DNA of 30,721 nucleotides from Candidatus Eiseniibacteriota bacterium (GCA_044222065.1 JBGAOA010000052.1:1-30721); one strand, 5' to 3'; shown: positions 3,107 through 26,374, counted from the stretch's first letter. Numbers and translations are program-made. Notes: a model not told the origin generated them from the letters alone.

Positions 3107-4415
3107 ATGTCCGCGCACGGCGCTTCCGCGTTCGACTTCTCGGCCGCGACACTCGAGCGGCTGCTCGAGCGTCTCGCGCGCTTCGGAGCGTCTCGCGCGC
3201 TTCGGCGCGCCCGGACCGGGTGTCACGCGCTTCGTCTACGACGCGCACTGGCGCGAGGCGCAGGCGTGGCTTCGGGAGCAGGCGCGCGGGGCCGGGCTCG
3301 AGGCGACGGTGGACGGGGCGGGCAACGTGCTGTTCCACGCGCCCGAGGCGACGCCGGGCGATCTCGCGCGGCCCGTGCTTCTCGTCGGCTCGCACTTCGA
3401 CACCGTTCGCCACGGTGGCCGATTCGACGGCGCGTACGGCGCGGTCGCCGGGCTGATGCTCGCCGCGCACCGGCGCGGCCGCCCGGGGCTGCCGGTCGTC
3501 GGCTTCGCGACGTGCGAGGAGGAGCAGAGCCGCTTCGACTCGCACATGATGGGCGCGCGCAGCCTGCTCGGGCTCGTGGACGCCGCCGAACTCGACCGCG
3601 TGAAGGACGCGGACGGCGTCACGTGGCGCGCCGCGCTGCGCGAGATGCGCGCGAGCGGCCACGCGGCGGGTCTCGCCGACGGCGAACGCCCGTTCACGCC
3701 GGCGTTCCGCGCGAGCCACCAGCTGGAGCTGCACATCGAACAGGGGCCCGTGCTGGAGTCGGCCGGCCTCGAACTCGGCATCGTCGAGCACATCGCCGGC
3801 TACCGGCGCATTCGCGCGACGATCGACGGCGCCGCGCGCCACGCGGGCACGACGCCGCTCGCGCTGCGCCACGACGCGCTCGCAGCCGCCGCGGAACTCG
3901 TGCTCGCGGTCGAATCGCTCGCCCGCGACGCCGGCGAGCCGGCGATCGCGACGTGCGGGAACGCGCTCGTGGCGCCCGCGCTCTACAACGTCGTGCCGGG
4001 GCACTGCGAAGTGTGGATGGAGGCGCGGCACGTCGAGCCCCGCGCGCTCGACGTGCTCGCGCGCGCGATGGAAGATCGCGGCCGCGCGATCGCGGCCCGC
4101 CGCGGCGTCGCGATCGCGTTCGAGTCCGTCACGCGCCAGGAACCGCCCGCGCTCGCCTCGGGCCTCGCGGGCGCGGCCGAAGCGCTCGCGCGCGAGCGCG
4201 CGATCCGCCACCGGCGCATGGCGAGCGGCGCGGCGCACGACACGATGGAGTTCGCGCGCGCGGGAAGCCGCACGCTCATGCTGTTCGCGCCGAGCCGCGA
4301 CGGCATCAGCCACTCGCCGGACGAGCACACGGATACGGCCGCGCTGTGGCGCGGGCTCGAGTTCGCCGGCGCGCTGATCGGCCGCGTCGCGGACGGCGCG
4401 GCCGCGCGGGCATGA
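3107..4415 (+). pseudogene. allC: Allantoate amidohydrolase / M20 Zn hydrolase, frameshifted by a 19-bp tandem duplication at 3167-3204
   Basis: The C-terminal frame (ORF 3309..4415) has GSHFDT, GGRFDG, EEEQSRF, ELHIEQGPVLE, HAGTTP, SGAAHD and GISHSPDE. The N-terminus from ATG 3107 is in another frame. Deleting one repeat copy gives a continuous 429-aa protein reading LERLARFGAPGPGVTRFVYDAHWREAQAWL...VDGAGNV. Confidence 0.85.
3167..3204 (+). repeat. Exact 19-bp tandem duplication (gagcgtctcgcgcgcttcg x2)
   Basis: Read directly: 3167-3185 is identical to 3186-3204. Confidence 0.97.
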
Positions 4416-4924
4416 CGCTCGCCGCGCTGAACGCGCTGCCCGCGGACGAGGCGCGCGCGGCGTTCGAGCTCTGCTGCGGCGCCGCGCGGTGGGCCGCGGC
4501 GATGTGCGCCGCGCGCCCGTTCGAAGACCGCGCCGCGCTCGAGGCCGCGGCCGAGCGCGCGGCGGACGCCCTCGCACGCGCCGACTGGCTCGAGGCGTTC
4601 GCGCACCACCCGCGCATCGGCGACGTCGAATCGCTGCGCGTGAAGTTCGCGAGGACCGCCGCGTGGGCGGGCCGCGAGCAGGGCGGAACCGCCGGCGCGA
4701 GCGACGCGACGCTCGCCGCGCTCGCCGAGGGCAATCGTGCCTACGAGCGGCGCTTCGGCTACATTTTCATCGTGTTCGCCACCGACAAGAGCGCCGACGA
4801 GATGCTCGCGCTGCTGCGCGCGCGGCTCGGCAACGAGCCCGCGGACGAACTCGCGATCGCGGCCGGCGAACAGCGCAAGATCACGCGGCTGCGGCTCGCG
4901 AAGCTGCTCGGAGAGGCGTCCTGA
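4412..4924 (+). CDS. uraD: OHCU decarboxylase
   Basis: ATGA overlap with the allC stop. MTLAALNAL...CCGAARWA...RPF, AFAHHPRIG, EQGG, NRAYERRFGYIFIVFAT, EQRKITRLRL; 170 aa. Confidence 0.93.
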   Translation: MTLAALNALPADEARAAFELCCGAARWAAAMCAARPFEDRAALEAAAERAADALARADWLEAFAHHPRIGDVESLRVKFARTAAWAGREQGGTAGASDATLAALAEGNRAYERRFGYIFIVFATDKSADEMLALLRARLGNEPADELAIAAGEQRKITRLRLAKLLGEAS

Positions 4925-5312: not shown

Positions 5313-5407
5313 CGCGCGGCGTTTCGCCCGCGCTCGCGCGCGTGGCAGAATGCCCGGCCTTTCCGCGGCGCGATGCGCGCGCCGCCCTCCACGGGAGGAC
5401 GCCCCGC

Positions 5408-6469
5408 TTGCCGCCTCGCCCGCCCGACTTCGACTTCTCGCGCTGGCCGCACATCGAGCGCGCCCGGCTCGCGGCGCGCGACATGCGGCGCCGCATCGAG
5501 AGCGCGCTCGAGGACAACTTCGCGCGCCTCGGCTCCTCGGACGTCAGCTTCGTCGTGTTCGGCTCGCTCGCGCGCGAGGAGTGGACCGAGCACAGCGACG
5601 TGGACTGGATGATGCTCGTGGACGGGCAGGCCGATCCGCAGCACGACCGCATCGAGCGCGAGTTCCGCGAGCTGCTGACGACGCTCGGCTGCGTGCCGCC
5701 CGGGCAGACCGGCATGTTCGGCGCGCTCGACTTCAGCCACGCGCTCATCCACGAGATCGGCGGCGAGGAGGACACGAACAGCAACATCACGAAGCGCGTG
5801 AGCCTGCTGCTCGAGGCGAAACCGATCGGCGGCGCCGAGGCGCTCGAGCGCGTCGTGCACGGCATCATCGCGCGCTACGTGGACGACGTGCTCGTCACGA
5901 CGCACCTGCGGTTCAACGAGCCGCGCGTGCCGCGGTTCCTGCTCAACGACATCGTGCGCTTCTGGCGCACCATGGCCGTGGACTACGCGAACAAGAAGCG
6001 CGCGCGGGCGACGGCCGGCTGGGCGCTGCGCAACTTCAAGCTGCGCATGTCGCGCAAGCTCATCTTCGCCGCCGGACTGCTGACCTGCTTCAGTTGCTCG
6101 ACGGAGCTGGCCGATGACTGGAAGGCCGCGGGACGCGACCCGGGCGACCTCGAGGCGGTGATGAACCGGCACCTGTTCGACTACGCGCGGCGAACGCCGC
6201 TCGACATCGTGGCGCGCGCGGCGGAGCGCCACGGGGGCGAAGCGCTGCTCGGCGAGCTGCTCTCGGCCTACGACCGCTTCCTCGAGCTGATCGGCGATGG
6301 CGACTCGCGTTCGGCGCTCCGCTCGCTCCGCCTGGAGCGGGCGACCGACGAGAATCCCGTGTGGGCCCGCGTGAATCAGATCTGCGGAGAGTTCGAGCAG
6401 GGCCTCGTCCGGCTGTTCTACGATTCCGACGCGTATCGCGGTCTGACGCGCAAGTACGGAGTGTTCTGA
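5408..6469 (+). CDS. Pol-beta superfamily nucleotidyltransferase with helical C-terminal domain (GlnD/GlnE/DUF294-like architecture), function unknown
   Basis: GGAGG at 5394-5398 precedes an in-frame TTG at 5408. FVVFGSLAREEW...SDVDW (GS plus DxD), LLLEAKPIG, FLLNDIVRFWRT and NFKLRMSRKL. Confidence 0.8.
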   Translation: MPPRPPDFDFSRWPHIERARLAARDMRRRIESALEDNFARLGSSDVSFVVFGSLAREEWTEHSDVDWMMLVDGQADPQHDRIEREFRELLTTLGCVPPGQTGMFGALDFSHALIHEIGGEEDTNSNITKRVSLLLEAKPIGGAEALERVVHGIIARYVDDVLVTTHLRFNEPRVPRFLLNDIVRFWRTMAVDYANKKRARATAGWALRNFKLRMSRKLIFAAGLLTCFSCSTELADDWKAAGRDPGDLEAVMNRHLFDYARRTPLDIVARAAERHGGEALLGELLSAYDRFLELIGDGDSRSALRSLRLERATDENPVWARVNQICGEFEQGLVRLFYDSDAYRGLTRKYGVF

Positions 6470-7227
6470 TGCGGCCGATCGGTTTCTCCACCGGTGCGCT
6501 CGCGTGCGGCGACTTCGAGTCGGCGCTGCGGATGCTGCGCGCGCCGGTCTACACGGCGTGCGAACTGTCCGCGCTGCGCGAGGAAGAGCTGGCGCCGCTG
6601 CTCGCGGCGCTCGGACGCCTCGACCTCGCGCGCTTCCGATACGTCGCGATCCACGCTCCGAGCCGGCTCGAGCGCCTCGCCGAGGCGGACGTCGTGCGCG
6701 CGCTCTCGAGCGAGGCCGCGCGCGAGCTGCCCGTCGTCTGCCACCCGAACGTGCTCGCGACGCCCGAGACGTGGCGTCCGCTCGGCCGGCGGCTGCTGAT
6801 CGAGAACATGGACAAGCGCAAACCGATCGGACGCACCGTGGCGGAACTCGCGCCGCTCTTCGAGGCGCTGCCGGACGCCGGCTTCTGCTTCGACCTCGGA
6901 CACGCCCGGCAGGTGGATCCCACGATGACGGTCGCGAGCGAGCTGCTGGACGCGTTCGGCGACCGGCTGCGGCAGCTGCACGTCAGTGAGGTGAACTCGA
7001 GCAACGTGCACGAGGCGCTCGGCCTGCCCGCGATCAGCAGCTTCCGCAAAATCGCGCGCCGCATTCCCGCGGGCGTGCCGCTGATCCTCGAGACGCCCGT
7101 CGGCGCGGACGCGCTCGAGTCCGAGCTGTCGCACGCGCTCGTCGCGCTCGGCGGCACCGACGAGATCCCGATGCGCAGCGGCCAGCACCTCGGCTGGTGT
7201 CCGGCGCCGACGCTCTGGAGGCGCTGA
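6469..7227 (+). CDS. AP endonuclease 2 / xylose isomerase-like metal-binding TIM barrel protein
   Basis: TGATG overlap with the NTase stop. IGFSTG, IHAP, CHP, IENM, FDLGH, LHVSE, NVH and LILET occur in the order expected for this fold; 252 aa. Confidence 0.8.
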   Translation: MRPIGFSTGALACGDFESALRMLRAPVYTACELSALREEELAPLLAALGRLDLARFRYVAIHAPSRLERLAEADVVRALSSEAARELPVVCHPNVLATPETWRPLGRRLLIENMDKRKPIGRTVAELAPLFEALPDAGFCFDLGHARQVDPTMTVASELLDAFGDRLRQLHVSEVNSSNVHEALGLPAISSFRKIARRIPAGVPLILETPVGADALESELSHALVALGGTDEIPMRSGQHLGWCPAPTLWRR

Positions 7228-7345
7228 GCCGGGCGTTCCGCTCGCGCGCGTGACCCCGTCGCGCTAACGTGCCGCGCGCCGGGCCGCACGCGTCACGAGG
7301 CACGCGCGCCGCGCTGACGCGCGCGCGGCCTGCGGAGCGCACCGA

Positions 7346-8692
7346 ATGGATCCGTCGTACTGGCATCGCGTCCAGTTCGCGTTCACGATCACCTACCACT
7401 ACCTGTTCCCCCAGCTCACGATGGGCCTCGCTCTGCTCATCGCGATCATGAAGTCGCTGGGGCTGCGCCCGGGCGGCGAGCGCTGGAACGACGCCGCGCG
7501 GTTCTGGATCCGGATCTTCGGGATCAACTTCGCGATGGGGGTCGTGACCGGGATCCCGATGGAGTTCCAGTTCGGCACGAACTGGGCGGCGTTCTCGCGC
7601 GCGGCGGGCAACGTGATCGGCCACACGCTCGGCATGGAAGGCCTGTTCGCGTTCTTCCTCGAGTCGAGCTTCCTCGCCGTGCTCGTGTGGGGCGAGCGCC
7701 GCGTCGGCCGCGTCGGCCACTGGCTGTCGTCGCTCGCGCTGTTCGCCGGCAGCTGGCTGTCGGGCTACTTCATCGTGACGACGAACGCGTTCCTGCAGCG
7801 ACCCGCCGGGCACGTCGTGGACGCCGACGGGACGATCCGGCTCGCCGACTTCGGGGCGTTCCTCTTCAACCCGTGGGCGATCGCGCAGTACGCGCACACG
7901 ATGACCGCGAGCGTCGTCACCGCGTCGTTCGTGGTCTCGGCCGTCGGCGCCTACTACGTGCTCGCCGGACGCGCGTCCGAGACCTCGCGCCGCTTCCTGC
8001 GCCTCGGCGTCGCGGCGGCGCTCGTTTCGAGCGTCGTCGTCGCGTTCCCGACCGGCGACCACCAGGCGAAGCTCGTCGCGCAGCACCAGCCGATCGCGCT
8101 CGCCGCGATGGAAGGCCGCTTCGAGAGCGGGCCGTACGCGAGGATCACGATCATCGGCCAGCCGAACCTGGCTGAGCGCCGCATCGACAACCCGCTCCAG
8201 GTGCCGGGCATGCTGAGCTTCCTCGCGTTCGGCGCGTTCCACACGAACGTGCCGGGGCTCGCCGAGTTCCCCGAGGACCACTGGCCCGACAACGTCGAGC
8301 TGCTCTACTACGCGTTCCACATCATGGTCGGCCTCGGCACGCTGCTCATCGGCGTCGCCGCGCTCGCGGCGTTCCTCGAGTGGCGCGGCCTGCTCGCGCG
8401 CGCACGCCCGGTGCTGTGGGTGCTCATGCTCGCGTTCCCGTTCCCGTACATCGCGAACACCGCCGGCTGGCTCACGGCGGAACTCGGACGCCAGCCGTGG
8501 CTCGTCTACGGGATCCTGCGCACGAAGGACGGTGCGAGCCCGCTCGTCCACCCGGGCAGCGCGCTGTTCACGCTGATCGGCTTCGCCGGCCTCTACCTGG
8601 TGCTCGGCCTCGCGTTCCTGTTCCTCGTCGGGCGCGAGATCGCCCACGGGCCCGACGCGCACGCCGCGGGGAAGGAGGCGGCCCGTGTTTGA
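7346..8692 (+). CDS. cydA: Cytochrome bd terminal oxidase subunit I (short Q-loop)
   Basis: RVQFAFTITYHYLFP (His19), FGINFAMGVVTGIPMEFQFGTNW, EGLFAFFLES, FHIMVG (Met393 equivalent) and GWLTAELGRQPW. Confidence 0.96.
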   Translation: MDPSYWHRVQFAFTITYHYLFPQLTMGLALLIAIMKSLGLRPGGERWNDAARFWIRIFGINFAMGVVTGIPMEFQFGTNWAAFSRAAGNVIGHTLGMEGLFAFFLESSFLAVLVWGERRVGRVGHWLSSLALFAGSWLSGYFIVTTNAFLQRPAGHVVDADGTIRLADFGAFLFNPWAIAQYAHTMTASVVTASFVVSAVGAYYVLAGRASETSRRFLRLGVAAALVSSVVVAFPTGDHQAKLVAQHQPIALAAMEGRFESGPYARITIIGQPNLAERRIDNPLQVPGMLSFLAFGAFHTNVPGLAEFPEDHWPDNVELLYYAFHIMVGLGTLLIGVAALAAFLEWRGLLARARPVLWVLMLAFPFPYIANTAGWLTAELGRQPWLVYGILRTKDGASPLVHPGSALFTLIGFAGLYLVLGLAFLFLVGREIAHGPDAHAAGKEAARV

Positions 8693-9731
8693 ACTGTGGT
8701 TCGGCATCGTGGCGCTGATGTTCACGGCCTACGTCGTGCTCGACGGCTTCGACCTCGGCGCGGGCGCGCTGCACCTGCTCGTGGCGAAGGACGACCGCGA
8801 GCGGCGCACCGTGCTCGCCGCGATCGGGCCGTTCTGGGACGCGAACGAAGTGTGGCTGCTCGCCGCGGGCGGCGCGCTGTTCGTCGCGTTCCCGCGCGCG
8901 CTGGCCGCGGGGCTCTCGGGCTTCTACCTCGCGATCTTCCTCGTGATCTGGTGCCTCGTGCTGCGCGCGATCGCGATCGAGTTCCGCTCGCACCTCACCG
9001 ACCGGCTGTGGCGCGGCTTCTGGGACGTCGTCTTCACGGGCGCGAGCGCCCTGCTCCCGGTGCTGTTCGGCGTCGCGCTCGGCAACGTGATCCGCGGCGT
9101 GCCGCTCACGGCGGACGGCTGGTTCCACCTGTCGCTGTTCACGACGTTCTCACCGTCGCCGCCCGTCGGGAGCCTCGACGCCTACACCGTGCTCGCGGGC
9201 GCGTTCGCGCTCGTGGCGCTCGCGGGCCACGGCGCGCTGTTCCTCGCGTGGCGCACGGACGGCGCCGTAGGCGGGCGCGCGCGCACGCTCGGCGCGCGCG
9301 CCTACGCGGCGCTCGCCGTGCTGTGGCCGCTCGCGACGTTCGCGACGTGGCGCGTGAACCCGTCGCTGTTCCAGGCGCTCCCGGCGCGCCCGCTCGCGTG
9401 GCTCGGCATCGCGCTCGCGCTCGCGGGGATCGTCGTCGTGTTCGCCGCCGGCGCGCGCCGGCGCCCGCTCGCGGCGTTCCTCGGCTCGTGCGCGTTCCTC
9501 GCGGGGATGCTCGGCGCGACCGCGGCCTGCCTGTTCCCGGTGCTGCTGTCCGCGATCGGCGATCCGGCGCGCTCGATCACCGCGCACGGCGGCGGCGCGA
9601 ACGAAGCCGGGCTCCGCACGGCGCTCGGCTGGTGGTCGTTGGGGATCCCGCTCGTCGTCGCGTACTTCACGCTGCTGTTCCGCATCCACCGCGGGAAAGC
9701 GGTTGCGGCGAACGACGGCGAGGGGTACTGA
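8685..9731 (+). CDS. cydB: Cytochrome bd terminal oxidase subunit II
   Basis: Overlaps the cydA end, with an AAGGAGG RBS. YVVLDGFDLGAG, IGPFWDANEVWL, FVAFP and LRAIAIEFR. Confidence 0.95.
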   Translation: MFELWFGIVALMFTAYVVLDGFDLGAGALHLLVAKDDRERRTVLAAIGPFWDANEVWLLAAGGALFVAFPRALAAGLSGFYLAIFLVIWCLVLRAIAIEFRSHLTDRLWRGFWDVVFTGASALLPVLFGVALGNVIRGVPLTADGWFHLSLFTTFSPSPPVGSLDAYTVLAGAFALVALAGHGALFLAWRTDGAVGGRARTLGARAYAALAVLWPLATFATWRVNPSLFQALPARPLAWLGIALALAGIVVVFAAGARRRPLAAFLGSCAFLAGMLGATAACLFPVLLSAIGDPARSITAHGGGANEAGLRTALGWWSLGIPLVVAYFTLLFRIHRGKAVAANDGEGY

Positions 9732-9738
9732 TCGCCGC

Positions 9739-10842
9739 GTGCGCCACTTCCCCTCGACGTCGCGCGCGCCTCGCGCCGCGCGCGTGCTCGCCGCCGCCGC
9801 GGCGCTCGCGCTGCTCGCCGCCGCCGGCTGCGGCGGCAAGTCCTCGACGGCGCCGCCGACCGCGGCGGGCGCGCGGCTCGGACTGAGCCTCAACACGACG
9901 GACTCGTCGCTGCTGAACCCGACGACGTTTCCCGATTCGATGCTCGATGCGCTCAATCGTGCAAAGGCCGCCGGCGTCACCGTGCTCGCGAACGTGCCGC
10001 AGTGGAGCGTGCTCGAACCGACGCCCGGCAACTGGAACCTCGGCGAGGCGACGATTTACTTCGACGTCGTGACCTCACTCGGCTTCCGCACTTACCTGAA
10101 CCTGCGCATCCTCGACACCGGCTCGCGGAACGTGCCGCCGGACGTCGCCGCCCTCGCGTGGGACGACACCGCGATGATCCGGCGCGTGGACGTCGTGGTG
10201 GACACGCTCGCGGCGTACGCGAACCGCTACCGCTGCCTCGCCGCGGCGTTCGGCAACGAGGTCGACGCGTACTTCGGGCAGCACCCGGCCGAGTTCGGAG
10301 CGTTTCTCGCGCTCTATCGCCGTGAGGTCGTGCGCTTCCACGCGCTCGCCCCGGGCGTGCCGATCGGCATCGTGACGACGAATCCGCTCGCGAACCCCGC
10401 CGCCGTGTACGGCGACTCGCTCAACGTGACGAGCGATGTCGTGCTGCACACGTTCTATCCGAGCGTGCCGGGTTCGTTCGACATGAAGCCGGTCGCGACG
10501 TTCGACGCCGACCTCGAGGCGGTCGTCGCGCGCGCGAACGGCAAGCCCGTCGCGTTCCAGGAGGTCGGCTTCTCGTCCGATCCGCTCGTGAACGGCTCGC
10601 CCGCCTCGCAGGCCGAAGCCGTGCGGCGCTTCCGGACGTGGCTCGCGCGCCAGCCGTCCTCGCGCGTGCCGTTCGCGAGCTGGTTCCTCTACACCGACTG
10701 GACCGCGATGACGCTCAACACGCTGTTCGGCTACTACGGCTTCAACACGCCCGAGTTCGGCGCGTTCCTCGGCTCGCTGGGCTTGCGCGACTCGCTCGGC
10801 CGCGCGAAGCCGGCGTGGGAGGAGTTCCGGACGCCGCGTTGA
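9739..10842 (+). CDS. Lipoprotein with putative clan GH-A glycoside hydrolase TIM barrel
   Basis: Lipobox LLAAAGC, WSVLEPTPG, FGNEVD (acid/base-like), HTFYP and FQEVGFSS (nucleophile-like). The start codon is uncertain. Confidence 0.6.
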   Translation: MRHFPSTSRAPRAARVLAAAAALALLAAAGCGGKSSTAPPTAAGARLGLSLNTTDSSLLNPTTFPDSMLDALNRAKAAGVTVLANVPQWSVLEPTPGNWNLGEATIYFDVVTSLGFRTYLNLRILDTGSRNVPPDVAALAWDDTAMIRRVDVVVDTLAAYANRYRCLAAAFGNEVDAYFGQHPAEFGAFLALYRREVVRFHALAPGVPIGIVTTNPLANPAAVYGDSLNVTSDVVLHTFYPSVPGSFDMKPVATFDADLEAVVARANGKPVAFQEVGFSSDPLVNGSPASQAEAVRRFRTWLARQPSSRVPFASWFLYTDWTAMTLNTLFGYYGFNTPEFGAFLGSLGLRDSLGRAKPAWEEFRTPR

Positions 10843-10845
10843 ACG

Positions 10846-12207
10846 CTACGCGCCGCCCTTCGCGCGCCGGCCGTTCAGCATCTTCACGAAGCTCCGCCCG
10901 CGCAGCTCCTCGAGCGTGAGCCCGGTCTCGAGCGCCTCCGCCTCAGTGAGCGCGCCGCACGACAGTCCGCGCAGGAAGAAGTTCAAGAGGCCCTGCCCGG
11001 TCGCGGCGTCGTCGAACACCGAGCCGAGCAGCGTCGCCTGCGCCGCCTTGTCCACGAACGCCTTGAGCCGCGCGGCCGCTTCGTCGCGTGCTTCGAGGAA
11101 GTACGCGAACACCGCCGCGTAGCGCGTCGGCAGCTGCGCGGGGTGCAGGTCCCAGCCCTGGTAGTAGGCATGGCGCAGCGAGTGGCGCACGTCGTCGTAG
11201 TGCTGCTTCCACGCGCCGTGCACCGCGGCGACGTTCGCCGCGCGCTGCGCGTCGGTGAGCGCGCCGCCCTCGGGCGCGCGGTGCGGCGCGACCGGCATGA
11301 CGGTCGTCGCGCCGTCCGAGATCGACACGCCCGTGCCCGCGAGCGTCACCTGCATGACGTGGCGCGCGAAGTCGCACGCGTCGTGGCCCGGCGCCTGGTA
11401 GCGCGCGGTGATGTTGCAGCTCGCGGTGTAGTCGTACACGCCGAAGTGCGCGCCGCGCACGCGGCCCCGGCCCGCGGCGACGAAGCCCGGCAGCGGCACG
11501 CCGCCGTCGGGGCCGAAGATCGTCTGCGGCGTCTCGACCATGAGTTCGATGGGGATCGCGCCCGGGGCGAGCCCGTTTCCGCGCTCGATCACTTCGAGCA
11601 CGTCCACGAACGTCGAGACCTGCTGCGCGCTCGTGATCTTCGGCAGCGTCACGCAGAAGTCGTTCGGCAGCTTCCCGCCGGTCGCGCGCGCGAGCGTGCT
11701 CACGTACAGATCGAGCGTGCGGAGCGCGCGGGGCGCCAGCTCCTCGGTGAGCGGTTTCACGCGGATGCCGATCGCCGGCGGCAGCAGGCGTTCGGCGAAC
11801 CCGCGCGCGGTTTCCTCGGCGTTCCGCACCGCCTGCGCGTCCTCTTCGGAGTCGAGCCGGTTGCCGTAGCCGTCCTCGAAGTCGATGCGGAAGTCCTCGA
11901 CCGGTTCGCGCTTCAGCTTCTCGACGACGCGCTCGTACACCGTGCGCTGGAACGCGGCGTCGCCGCCGAGCGCGAGCGCGCGCGCGAACGTGGCGGCGTC
12001 CGGCGCGTACTCCTCGAGGCTTCGCACGGCCGCGGCACCGAGCTTGCCCGTCAGCTCGGCGGTGAAGAGCTGGGCGCCGCCGTACACCGTGTGCACGGGC
12101 TGGCGATCCAGCCGGTCGCCGGGGTAGGCTCGCGCGGTCCTTCGATTCGCTTCCTGAAGCCGCGCGAGCGTTTCGCGCGTCCGATCGTCCGTCAGCACGC
12201 TGTGCAT
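10846..12207 (-). CDS. HpcH/HpaI aldolase / citrate lyase beta (CitE)-fold protein (DUF6986-like)
   Basis: RQPVHTVYGGA, EDFRIDFEDGYG, GIRVK, TLPK, ELMVETPQ, HFGVYDYTA, ISDGAT and QGWDLHPAQLPTRY; GGAG RBS; divergent from allE. Confidence 0.8.
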   Translation of the reverse strand: MHSVLTDDRTRETLARLQEANRRTARAYPGDRLDRQPVHTVYGGAQLFTAELTGKLGAAAVRSLEEYAPDAATFARALALGGDAAFQRTVYERVVEKLKREPVEDFRIDFEDGYGNRLDSEEDAQAVRNAEETARGFAERLLPPAIGIRVKPLTEELAPRALRTLDLYVSTLARATGGKLPNDFCVTLPKITSAQQVSTFVDVLEVIERGNGLAPGAIPIELMVETPQTIFGPDGGVPLPGFVAAGRGRVRGAHFGVYDYTASCNITARYQAPGHDACDFARHVMQVTLAGTGVSISDGATTVMPVAPHRAPEGGALTDAQRAANVAAVHGAWKQHYDDVRHSLRHAYYQGWDLHPAQLPTRYAAVFAYFLEARDEAAARLKAFVDKAAQATLLGSVFDDAATGQGLLNFFLRGLSCGALTEAEALETGLTLEELRGRSFVKMLNGRRAKGGA

Positions 12208-24510: not shown

Positions 24511-24932
24511 GCGCGGATCGCGCTCCGCGCGTGACGCGCGTCGTCGAGACCGCGCTCTACGTGGACGATGTCGAGCGCGCGGTCGCGTTCTACCGCGACG
24601 TGCTGGGCCTGCGCGCGATGGGCGAGGGCCCGCGGCTCGTGCCGATGGACGCGGGCGCCGGCACGCTGCTGCTGCTGTTCCGGCGCGGCGCGACGCGCGA
24701 GGGCCTCGAGTTCCCGGGCGGCTGGATCCCGCCGCACGACGGCGCGGGACCCGCGCACTTCGCGCTCGGCATCGCGCTCGAGGACGTCGAGGCGTGGGAG
24801 GCGCGCCTCGCCGCGCACGGCGTCCAAGTCGAGAGCCGCGTGTCGTGGTCGCGCGGCGGACGGAGCCTCTACTTCCGCGATCCCGATGGCCACTCGGTCG
24901 AACTCGTCACGCCGGGGACGTGGGAGACGTAA
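24507..24932 (+). CDS. VOC/glyoxalase family protein
   Basis: VETALYVDDVERAVAFYRDVLGL, PPHDGAGPAHFA and GGRSLYFRDPDGHSVELVTPG; 141 aa. Confidence 0.9.
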   Translation: MSADRAPRVTRVVETALYVDDVERAVAFYRDVLGLRAMGEGPRLVPMDAGAGTLLLLFRRGATREGLEFPGGWIPPHDGAGPAHFALGIALEDVEAWEARLAAHGVQVESRVSWSRGGRSLYFRDPDGHSVELVTPGTWET

Positions 24933-26374
24933 TGAGGCCGGCGGCGGCGGGCGAATCCCGTTGGTGCCGTCTGCCCTCGGGAGTAGCTTCCCTATTCGGA
25001 CCCGAAATCTCGGAGGCTGCCGTGCCGCTCGCATGCGATTCGGAATTCGGCTTTCCCACGGAACTCCATCCGTCCGGCTCGAACTCGGAACCTCGTGGCA
25101 ACCGCCGCGGCTTCTCGGCCTCGGCGCTCGGCCTCGCGCTCGTGATCGCCGTTGGCGCGATGGCGGCGGGCGCGGCGCGAGCTCAACAGTGTTCCGCGCC
25201 GCTCGGGCCCTGCGCCACGTGCTTCACCTCGATTCTCGGAGCGCGCTGGTGCGGGGCGTTCCCGTATCGGGTCGATTACTACTACGCGGCGAGCATTCCG
25301 TCCGGCTCGCGGATCATCTCGGCGGTGGAGTGGGCGGTCGCCGAATGGAACTTCGACACGTTGTACGGAAACCAGATCCCGATCTGGTTCGACAATCAGG
25401 GAGGGAACCAGCTTTCGATAGAAAAGGGTTCGATCGACGGCCCGGGTGGCAGGCTGGCGGAGATGCGGCCCATCGTCGGCATTCTCGGGAATTTCACGAG
25501 CACCGCGATCCTGTTCGACAGCGCGGAAGACTGGGAGCACATGCCGACGAACGACATTCATCAGATCGCGCTGCACGAATTGGGGCACGTGCTGGGGCTT
25601 GGACACGTCCCGTGTTCCCTCCCCGGCTGCTCGAACCTGCTCATGTATCCCTGTCAGAACTCCAACGCCGTCATCGACGGCAGTGCGCACTCGTCGCTTC
25701 AGTGCATCTATGGCGACCTCATCGAATCCCCCTGTCAGTCCTTGTTCGGCCGCTTCGTCCGGGCGTTCCTCGAACAACCGGACGCCATCACCCTCGTCAA
25801 GGGCACCTGTCGCGGCTGTGCCGGCAGTTGCTGGAGCGGACCCCAGCCGGAGCCGGTCGACGCGACACTGGCGGGCCTGACGTATGAACTCGCCGTCAGT
25901 TCGAACGGGGGCGCATACACGACTTTTGCGACGATCGACGACTCGCAGTGGATCAACAACCGCTACACGCGCACGTTTTCCGAGTCGTGGTCGGCCGCAA
26001 CGATTCGTACGACGATCCGAAACGGTGCGTCGCTCGTGGATCAGGTCTACTCGTATCCTCCCGTCGACATCGTCGTGACGACCGCAGTTCCGGAGGCGGA
26101 GCAGGGCTCATCGTCCATCGTCTTCGCGAAGCCGAACCCGTCACGGGGCAAGGTCGTACTCACGTCGCGAGCGCGTGACGTCGCATCGATCGTGATCTGC
26201 GACGCTCAGGGCCGCGTGATTCGGGCGCTCGATCCGCATCCGCTCGAGTACGGCGGTGCGCTGGAGTGGGACGGTCGGGACGCCGCCGGCCGAGCGGTGG
26301 GCAACGGCATCTACTTCGTGCGCGTCTCGACCCGAGGGACTCAGCATTCTTGCCGCGTGGTCATGGCTCGCTGA
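24932..26374 (+). CDS. Secreted matrixin/metzincin-like Zn metalloprotease with C-terminal FlgD-Ig-like domain
   Basis: HELGHVLGLGH (25574-25606) plus Met-turn LLMYP; signal-like RRGFSASALGLALVIAVGAMAAGAARA; C-terminal PNPSRG...DAQGRVIRAL...WDGRDAAGRAVGNGIYFVRV. The true start may be downstream, e.g. GTG 25022. Confidence 0.82.
   Translation: MRPAAAGESRWCRLPSGVASLFGPEISEAAVPLACDSEFGFPTELHPSGSNSEPRGNRRGFSASALGLALVIAVGAMAAGAARAQQCSAPLGPCATCFTSILGARWCGAFPYRVDYYYAASIPSGSRIISAVEWAVAEWNFDTLYGNQIPIWFDNQGGNQLSIEKGSIDGPGGRLAEMRPIVGILGNFTSTAILFDSAEDWEHMPTNDIHQIALHELGHVLGLGHVPCSLPGCSNLLMYPCQNSNAVIDGSAHSSLQCIYGDLIESPCQSLFGRFVRAFLEQPDAITLVKGTCRGCAGSCWSGPQPEPVDATLAGLTYELAVSSNGGAYTTFATIDDSQWINNRYTRTFSESWSAATIRTTIRNGASLVDQVYSYPPVDIVVTTAVPEAEQGSSSIVFAKPNPSRGKVVLTSRARDVASIVICDAQGRVIRALDPHPLEYGGALEWDGRDAAGRAVGNGIYFVRVSTRGTQHSCRVVMAR

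Follow-up and report, generated by a model that had tools for sequence, protein, structure and literature searches.

We examined two coupled genes in a 30,721-nucleotide stretch of DNA from a Candidatus Eiseniibacteriota bacterium (GCA_044222065.1, JBGAOA010000052.1:1-30721), which we call the window. The first (gene 1) encodes a pol-beta nucleotidyltransferase (NTase) and the second (gene 2) a TIM barrel resembling endonuclease IV (EndoIV). Together they are the catalogued candidate PDC-M70 of PADLOC, not a new system. The features of the locus, in window positions, are as follows.

5408..6469, plus strand: gene 1 (PDC-M70A), pol-beta NTase with a C-terminal GlnE/DrrA-type helical bundle; TTG start, 353 amino acids (aa)
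6469..7227, plus strand: gene 2 (PDC-M70B), TIM barrel of the AP-endonuclease-2 superfamily; ATG start, 252 aa
5393..5399, plus strand: Shine-Dalgarno-like GGGAGGA, 8 nt 5' of the gene 1 TTG, read from the sequence
5558..5605, plus strand: catalytic motif of gene 1, F51-G52-S53...R56-x-E58...D64-x-D66, invariant in the alignment
6455..6466, plus strand: C-terminus of gene 1, Y350-G351-x-F353, whose Y and G are peculiar to the barrel-partnered clade
6467..6471, plus strand: TGATG stop/start overlap of genes 1 and 2 (translational coupling), read from the sequence
5313..10845, no strand assigned: block of the pair, cydA, cydB and a 365-aa lipoprotein-like open reading frame (ORF), lying between uraH and a DUF6986 gene; context, outside the module

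Gene 1 matched the PDC-M70A model with an E-value of 8.7e-117 (residues 11-353 on profile positions 17-355 of 355), and gene 2 matched PDC-M70B at 4.9e-91 (residues 1-228 on positions 1-228 of 238). With both models matched by adjacent genes on the same strand, the pair belongs to PDC-M70 and is therefore not undescribed. An earlier note, made from the sequence alone, had considered the module undescribed while naming a match to a described system as grounds for abandoning that view; PDC-M70 is such a match, although the literature searched contains no test of this candidate. Nicastro et al. (2023) are said to have reported deoxynucleoside triphosphatase (dNTPase)-NTase systems, which may cover this transferase family. 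In the literature that we searched, which did not extend to that work but included the available parts of PMC8649781 and PMC7824862, there was no description of the pair and no occurrence of the string PDC-M70. The candidate comes from Payne et al. (bioRxiv 10.1101/2024.01.29.577857), whose available text presents 145 predicted systems located inside BREX, DISARM or type I restriction-modification (RM) loci, added to PADLOC for future study, and describes no experimental test of them. The window copy does not lie within any such locus.

The two reading frames, the TGATG overlap that joins them and the ribosome-binding site before gene 1 are all as they had been read in the earlier note. We preferred the TTG start of gene 1 over a later ATG because the PDC-M70A match begins at residue 11. 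The GC content at third codon positions (0.95 in gene 1 and 0.93 in gene 2) is of coding type and like that of the adjoining genes, and 8,000 scored candidates included 2,123 homologues of gene 1 and 2,946 of gene 2. We found no sigma-70 promoter and no clear terminator in the surroundings of the pair.

A scan of GTDB confirmed 400 relatives, and our locus counts refer to the best 80 of these. At all 80 loci the barrel lies directly 3' of the transferase (77 pairs are whole, and 3 are interrupted by contig ends with the barrel start still visible), so the coupling that had been proposed for the window recurs elsewhere. The genes most often overlap by 1 nt (56 loci) and otherwise abut (10), overlap by 4 nt (6) or have some other junction (8). 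The hosts are chiefly Acidobacteriota, and they also include Planctomycetota, Alphaproteobacteria, Myxococcota and Elusimicrobiota. A full match to the pair was present in none of 24 genomes of the same family and none of 40 relatives, and a close form turned up in only 3 genomes out of 300 other Acidobacteriota and in none of the 400 Pseudomonadota sampled. The pair is a real, obligate and mobile two-gene module. No third gene is conserved beside it across the 80 loci, and we reject a conserved third component; the recurring neighbors, nrdJ at 17 loci and a carboxyltransferase gene at 13, mark insertion sites in Terriglobales. Neither gene had a match in IMG/VR viral contigs, nor gene 1 in GenBank phages, with search patterns that reach close relatives only. 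Additional fragments of the barrel gene lie 5' of an intact pair at two loci (L004:6002-6206 and L039:7533-7739) and therefore suggest repeated insertion at the same site.

The placement of the pair after uraH, which the earlier note had stressed, is real but only incidental. Among the same-family genomes, 19 of 24 have uraH, and in 16 of 29 relative loci a DUF6986 gene follows uraH within 1.5 kb; neither the pair nor cydA is found there in any of the 29. The pair, cydAB and one ORF therefore interrupt a purine cluster. Given the patchy spread of the pair and the way the block parts uraH from its usual neighbor, regulation of purine or nitrogen-scavenging enzymes, as had been suggested, is not what we find, and we reject a role in the purine cluster since relatives with the same cluster lack the pair. 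The DUF6986 gene that closes the interruption (10846-12207, minus strand) has weak malate synthase and HpcH barrel matches and likely encodes a glyoxylate-using step of purine breakdown. The lipoprotein-like ORF in the inserted block (9745-10842, plus strand) has no Pfam match at E≤0.01 and looks by eye like a glycoside hydrolase barrel.

We compared the AlphaFold2 (AF2) model of gene 1 (pLDDT 90.6) with known structures and found that it most resembles the AMPylase domain of DrrA (Z 14.6, 260 residues aligned, root-mean-square deviation 4.5) and the AT and AR domains of GlnE (Z 13.9 and 13.6). Among other full-length relatives, ANT (Z 6.9) and HalB (Z 5.6) follow at a wide distance, with aminoglycoside transferases, MNTs and HalB all at Z ≤7.3, and Foldseek ranked DrrA and both GlnE domains at the top in the same order. 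GlnD, GlnE and DrrA modify protein tyrosines. The earlier note had proposed a stand-alone transferase of the GlnD/GlnE type, with structure comparison as one of its checks, and the predicted fold supports that assignment. The likeness extends over about 260 residues, covering the pol-beta core and a HEPN-like bundle. In a profile comparison with GlnD (hhalign, broad gene 1 profile; probability 87%, E 4e-6), GS, DxD and LLE fall in register. The LLE at residues 134-136, within the stretch LLLEAKPIG that had been likened to LLEAR, aligns with NLQEARLL of GlnD. The stretch NFKLRMSRK had been taken for an N-x-K motif, and this did not hold, as its W205-A-L-R-N falls on GGLRD of GlnD instead.

The catalytic residues G52, S53, R56, E58, D64 and D66, which contain the GS...DxD site recognized at the outset, are intact in all 82 barrel-partnered homologues. 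Pfam assigns NTP_transf_2, DUF294 and Polbeta to the N-terminal part of gene 1 only and, in agreement with the reading by eye, finds no HD, ACT or CBS domain. The 353-aa protein therefore lacks the multidomain, bifunctional layout of GlnD and GlnE (HD plus ACT, or AT/AR): it is a single stand-alone domain without a second transferase domain, its predicted eraser is encoded separately and has a different fold, and PDC-M70 is patchy and mobile. NCBIfam GlnD models scored gene 1 at 10-15 bits against cut-offs of 631-1010, and a PDB sequence search gave weak N-terminal matches only. No fusions of gene 1 appeared among proteins of 715-2040 aa, which is weak evidence and leaves aside the range of 619-714 aa. 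In fold, the C-terminal bundle resembles HEPN domains, but the alignment shows no conserved histidine beyond residue 115. According to the available text of PMC3710099, the HEPN-like domains of GlnD, GlnE and DUF294_C are without the R-x4-6-H motif, and DrrA is a protein-tyrosine modifier. In the ESM Atlas, the cluster nearest to gene 1 outside its own family is a 272-aa Pseudomonadota cluster at rank 15 (score 0.85, 180 shared features), whose size would suit CloB.

Gene 2 matched Pfam AP_endonuc_2 (E 1.8e-8), and its AF2 model (pLDDT 91.8) is an AP-endonuclease-2 barrel with a low-confidence tail at residues ~233-252. Across 200 homologues, H62, H92, E112, D142, H145, H171 and H181 are invariant, and E208 is kept in 199. 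The exception among the EndoIV ligands is the position of the DRH aspartate, where serine stands in 182 homologues and S, G, N and A together account for all 200. The earlier count by eye of 8 of 9 ligands therefore holds across the family. Weak local alignments with two Nfo proteins (E 0.037 and 0.36) place H92, E112, D142, H145, H171, H181 and E208 on EndoIV motifs, using what we take to be the ligand numbering of the E. coli enzyme, and H62 is matched by motif only (HAPS versus HAPY). A putative EndoIV-type metal site with 8 of 9 ligand positions is supported. Residue 174, a glutamate, is acidic in 195 of 200 homologues, S65 of the HAPS motif is serine in 197 and threonine in 3, and E32, S34, R37, D115, R117 and S173 are invariants specific to the family.

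The barrel thus shares its fold and most of its metal-ligand positions with EndoIV (Nfo) and CbiR, but it differs from Nfo in the serine at the DRH aspartate, in HAPS for HAPY and in the nfo family model. We reject Nfo proper, since the nine-ligand set, the HAPY tyrosine and an nfo hidden Markov model (HMM) match are all absent. Among NCBIfam matches at E≤1, the nfo model does not appear, and CbiR is the sole match (E 4.3e-6; 26 bits against a cut-off of 105). CbiR is described as a phosphodiesterase of the AP-endonuclease-2 superfamily in the available text of PMC7733943. Two copies of the barrel, both 401 aa in total (L029:3417-4622 and L043:9035-10240), carry about 160 aa of extra C-terminal sequence, which has a weak GIY-YIG match in L029 (E 0.0027) and none in L043.

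Plasmid matches at 25-31% identity led us to a sister clade of transferases (24-33% identity, E 2e-10 to 4e-35), which we counted in the best 80 metagenome loci, many of them near-copies. In 67 the transferase lies next to an HD gene, in 5 there is none nearby and in 8 the contig is too short, so that 67 of the 72 loci with room have an HD partner. A histidine phosphatase follows the transferase in 27 of 80 and the barrel in none. The suggestion that the barrel stands in for an HD domain is in keeping with this. One of the 5, L204, has an HD gene 930 bp off, which leaves 4. At L205 and L207 the HD gene sits past an inserted dGTPase. The latter is a reversed Dgt-type gene between the HD gene and the transferase (L205 and L207:3154-4497, minus strand); related loci either have their HD gene farther off or have none. 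In an unrooted quick IQ-TREE phylogeny (160 rows thinned to 101 at 75% identity, from two different queries with biased sampling), 56 barrel-partnered rows (SH-aLRT 93) separate from the HD group (SH-aLRT 96).

Five further, more distant transferases in Acidobacteriota have the following partners: HD and HAD genes at L261; an HD gene at L262; an NT5C nucleotidase and a 2H-like phosphoesterase at L263 (3487-5627); a DEDDh exonuclease-like gene overlapping the transferase start at L264 (3225-4851); and at L265 (3775-7055) a coupled 756-aa protein in which an N-terminal 2H-like domain is fused to an Eco57I-type methylase domain. The 2H assignments rest on weak Pfam matches (E 0.005-0.08) plus motifs. 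The three-gene cassette at L263, with 34.5% GC in a 68-74% GC region, looks recently acquired. Not every transferase fits this pattern; a Mycobacterium plasmid copy (L117) has an OLD-like ATPase upstream instead, and some copies are solitary (L139). As the most frequent partners are phosphoesterases whose folds are not related to one another, we infer that the barrel is probably a phosphoesterase too, and this interchange of partners (HD, 2H and DEDDh, with HAD or histidine phosphatases), which is new here, argues for its being a phosphodiesterase.

The sister clade itself includes an E. coli plasmid (L113, NZ_CP092257.1) on which an HD dNTPase-like gene of ~350 aa (4131-4499 with 1-684), with a weak PADLOC dGTPase match in its scanned part (E 1e-8), is followed by a sister transferase (711-1706). 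The module is the only cargo of this 4.5-kb, Rop-bearing plasmid, and the same layout recurs at L140-L219, in the 67 of 72 metagenome loci above. Among PDB matches of the sister HD gene at E≤0.01, 2q14 ranks first and the 473-aa 9p8s-v entries, which we take to be CloA, are absent; the sister HD family is not CloA itself. With its Clover-like layout and different HD family, this module is a good defense candidate in its own right.

We also asked in what order the two genes are lost, using 301 Acidobacteriota genomes. The barrel occurs in 7, of which 4 have a close transferase adjacent and 3 do not; no close transferase without the barrel was found in this sample, and all 4 keep it. Two of the 3 barrel-only loci retain a transferase stub directly before the barrel. 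At L266 the barrel is intact with all its ligands and is preceded by the last transferase codons (FGVF-stop) and a TGAATG junction, and at L268 the barrel is frameshifted and the upstream stub ends in YGVF-stop. The third, L267, is a 5'-truncated barrel only. The order in which the genes are lost, with barrel-only relics that keep a transferase stub, would fit a transferase acting as toxin and a barrel acting as its harmless antidote. At L077 both genes are broken, possibly through assembly errors.

We scanned the 379 genes that lie up to three genes away from the pair, as 319 representatives with matches carried to cluster members (PADLOC, E≤1e-25); 22 of them, in 20 of the 80 loci, matched defense models. 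These comprise type I and II RM parts, Mrr, a retron reverse transcriptase (RT), JetA, CapP, HNH and several PDCs. As controls we took 20 regions at even spacing from five genomes of the same set (117 genes), where matches occurred in 2 genes and 2 regions. Genes were called with a simple gene caller. Housekeeping-like matches were excluded on both sides before counting: beside the pair, two ABC ATPases, a DprA-like gene, a kinase, an adenosine deaminase and UvrD (six in all), and in the control regions, three ABC ATPases and a kinase (four). A one-sided Fisher test gives p = 0.050 when genes are counted and 0.064 when loci are counted (16 of 53 that were well covered versus 2 of 20), with loci that are not independent. 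Individual copies lie among SIR2-HerA, PDC-S08, BilA-D and Shango genes on a Mesorhizobium plasmid, two genes from AbiEii in Sinorhizobium, and near type I RM genes at L026. In Terriglobales, a hotspot of variable cargo lies between the barrel and nrdJ (L001, L002, L004, L019, L020, L025, L040, L051 and L078), carrying a retron-type RT, Mrr plus an ATPase, calcineurin-STAND (PDC-S60), DUF3644 and Schlafen-NB-ARC-TPR, often with a PD-(D/E)XK gene 5' of the pair.

Several known defense modules resemble PDC-M70 in part. Clover and Hailong are likewise two-gene modules with a pol-beta NTase. According to the available text of PMC12265719, the CloA dGTPase of Clover is the toxin and the CloB NTase makes the inhibitor p3diT. 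PDC-M70 differs in that its NTase comes first and has no HD partner; the sister-clade HD profile had 0 matches in the 80 PDC-M70 loci, and we reject membership of Clover since no HD dGTPase effector stands beside gene 1. A search for CloB at three plasmid and 30 genome dGTPase loci found no neighboring transferase. Hailong is rejected as well, because the HalB model scored gene 1 at 14.4 bits against a cut-off of 190 and the partner is a soluble barrel, not the membrane protein HalA. The type VII toxin-antitoxin pair MNT-HEPN is rejected since the HEPN-like bundle is without a conserved R-x4-6-H motif. A parallel in logic is DarTG, in which a toxic writer is followed by an enzymatic eraser in phage defense, although it acts by ADP-ribosylation of DNA with folds unrelated to those of PDC-M70.

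The overall reading of the earlier note stands in part: the two-gene module, the transferase type and the metal site remain, and novelty and purine or nitrogen regulation do not. We put a probability of roughly 40% on PDC-M70 being a toxic writer of nucleoside monophosphate (NMP) marks on proteins together with a phosphodiesterase eraser, likely in anti-phage defense. Gene 1 would attach NMP, probably adenosine monophosphate, at a hydroxyl group of a cellular protein and would likely be toxic; gene 2, a predicted metal phosphodiesterase, would strip the mark. The pair would then act as a writer/eraser toxin-antitoxin switch, probably triggered by phage infection. Both activities, the toxic effect of gene 1 and the view that its substrate is a protein are what we infer here, and a number of observations weigh against them. 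The GlnE-like fold leaves the substrate of gene 1 unfixed, a Z of ~14 for a largely helical protein is barely over the caution range of the comparison tool, and no conserved third carboxylate was identified. Class I adenylate cyclase clusters lie near gene 1 by ESM Atlas features (score 0.82-0.83, leads only). Only two relics (L266 and L268) underlie the asymmetry of loss, and a solo barrel may or may not be expressed. Defense-gene enrichment is modest, 60 of 80 loci have no defense match at all, and the window copy has host-like GC and no defense-gene neighbor. In the sister clade, finally, the HD motif HD-x-G-H-x4-H-x2-E has the spacing of CloA H117/D118/H126/E129 in 13 of 13 sequences checked, and this, along with the 5 loci scored without an adjacent HD gene, points to the opposite polarity there.

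It is unlikely, though a serious contender, that gene 1 instead makes a diffusible nucleotide (a cyclic or linear dinucleotide, or something alarmone-like) or extends a nucleic-acid end, with a toxic or signaling product that gene 2 destroys. The polarity of writer and eraser would be the same, with a product other than a protein mark, and the loss asymmetry is equally compatible. The monoesterases added at sister loci (histidine phosphatases at 27 of 80, HAD at L261, NT5C at L263) resemble a nucleotide breakdown chain and suit a small-molecule product at least as well as a protein mark. Enzymes of the 2H and DEDDh types act on cyclic or oligo-nucleotides, and sister transferases pair with both; the adenylate cyclase clusters point the same way. 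However, the top full-length structural matches of gene 1 are all protein NMP-transferases, and no conserved receptor or effector gene stands beside the pair. With the roles exchanged, as in Clover and Hailong, gene 1 would constitutively make an inhibitory nucleotide, and gene 2 would be a toxic nuclease or nucleotide-pool hydrolase freed when phage disturbs the signal. The dNTPase-then-NTase layout and CloA-like HD..H..E spacing of the sister clade are consistent with this, as are the weak structural and HMM kinship of HalB to gene 1 and the EndoIV-like barrel with its two C-terminally extended copies, one with the GIY-YIG match. We nonetheless consider it rather improbable, as the intact barrel at L266 has outlived deletion of its transferase, which should be lethal if it is expressed, and as the gene order is opposite to that of Clover. 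The barrel also has HAPS where EndoIV has HAPY, and it is absent from the effector classes named in the extended figure of Clover, in the available text of PMC12265719.

A regulator outside defense, reversibly NMPylating a metabolic enzyme as GlnD and GlnE do, possibly in purine or nitrogen scavenging, would draw on the kinship of gene 1 with those enzymes, on the long residence of the pair by nrdJ or the carboxyltransferase gene in Terriglobales and on the absence of defense neighbors at most loci. We think this quite unlikely, given that the pair is missing from all 24 same-family genomes, 19 of them with uraH, and its close form from nearly all other Acidobacteriota and every Pseudomonadota genome sampled, and that it has no sensor domain, many unrelated insertion sites and plasmid copies in defense islands. 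The least probable alternative, which we regard as very improbable, is sugar chemistry, with gene 2 an isomerase or epimerase and gene 1 a sugar or antibiotic NTase. Fold scores do not separate epimerases from EndoIV, since epimerase-like structures tie with or slightly exceed EndoIV (Z 19.9-18.8 versus 18.4-17.6), and one distant transferase (L116) lies inside a glycosyltransferase cluster. A profile comparison of gene 2 with 10 UlaE-type proteins, from the sugar phosphate isomerase/epimerase group (UlaE, DTEase; E/D/H/E metal core), yielded no usable register. However, the invariant H62 and H92 give the barrel an EndoIV-like extra metal site, and we know of no sugar epimerases that have these two extra histidines. 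The partner is also replaced by unrelated phosphoesterases, and no conserved sugar-pathway gene is nearby.

Elsewhere in the window, a gene at 24794-26374 (plus strand) encodes a secreted-looking protein with, by eye, a HELGH zinc-protease motif and a C-terminal sorting-type domain.

Returning to the toxic protein-NMP writer and its eraser, a bolder form of this idea, which we hold only tentatively and think somewhat unlikely, is that PDC-M70 is a branch of a widespread immune family of GlnE/DrrA-fold transferases with at least four plug-in phosphodiesterase folds (EndoIV-type barrel, HD, 2H and DEDDh), here a phage-triggered protein AMPylase toxin reversed by an EndoIV-fold de-NMPylase. No such EndoIV-fold activity was found in the literature searched. 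On that view the Legionella effector DrrA would have, in PDC-M70, a relative in bacterial immunity. Should the writer and eraser reading itself be right, the endonuclease IV fold would gain a de-NMPylase activity, and phage defense would gain a reversible switch of protein NMPylation. PDC-M70, for which the literature searched offers no mechanism, is now directly testable in terms of a predicted toxic gene, key residues and a role for the barrel, and the sister HD-NTase(-phosphatase) module on the 4.5-kb E. coli plasmid provides an easy second test case.

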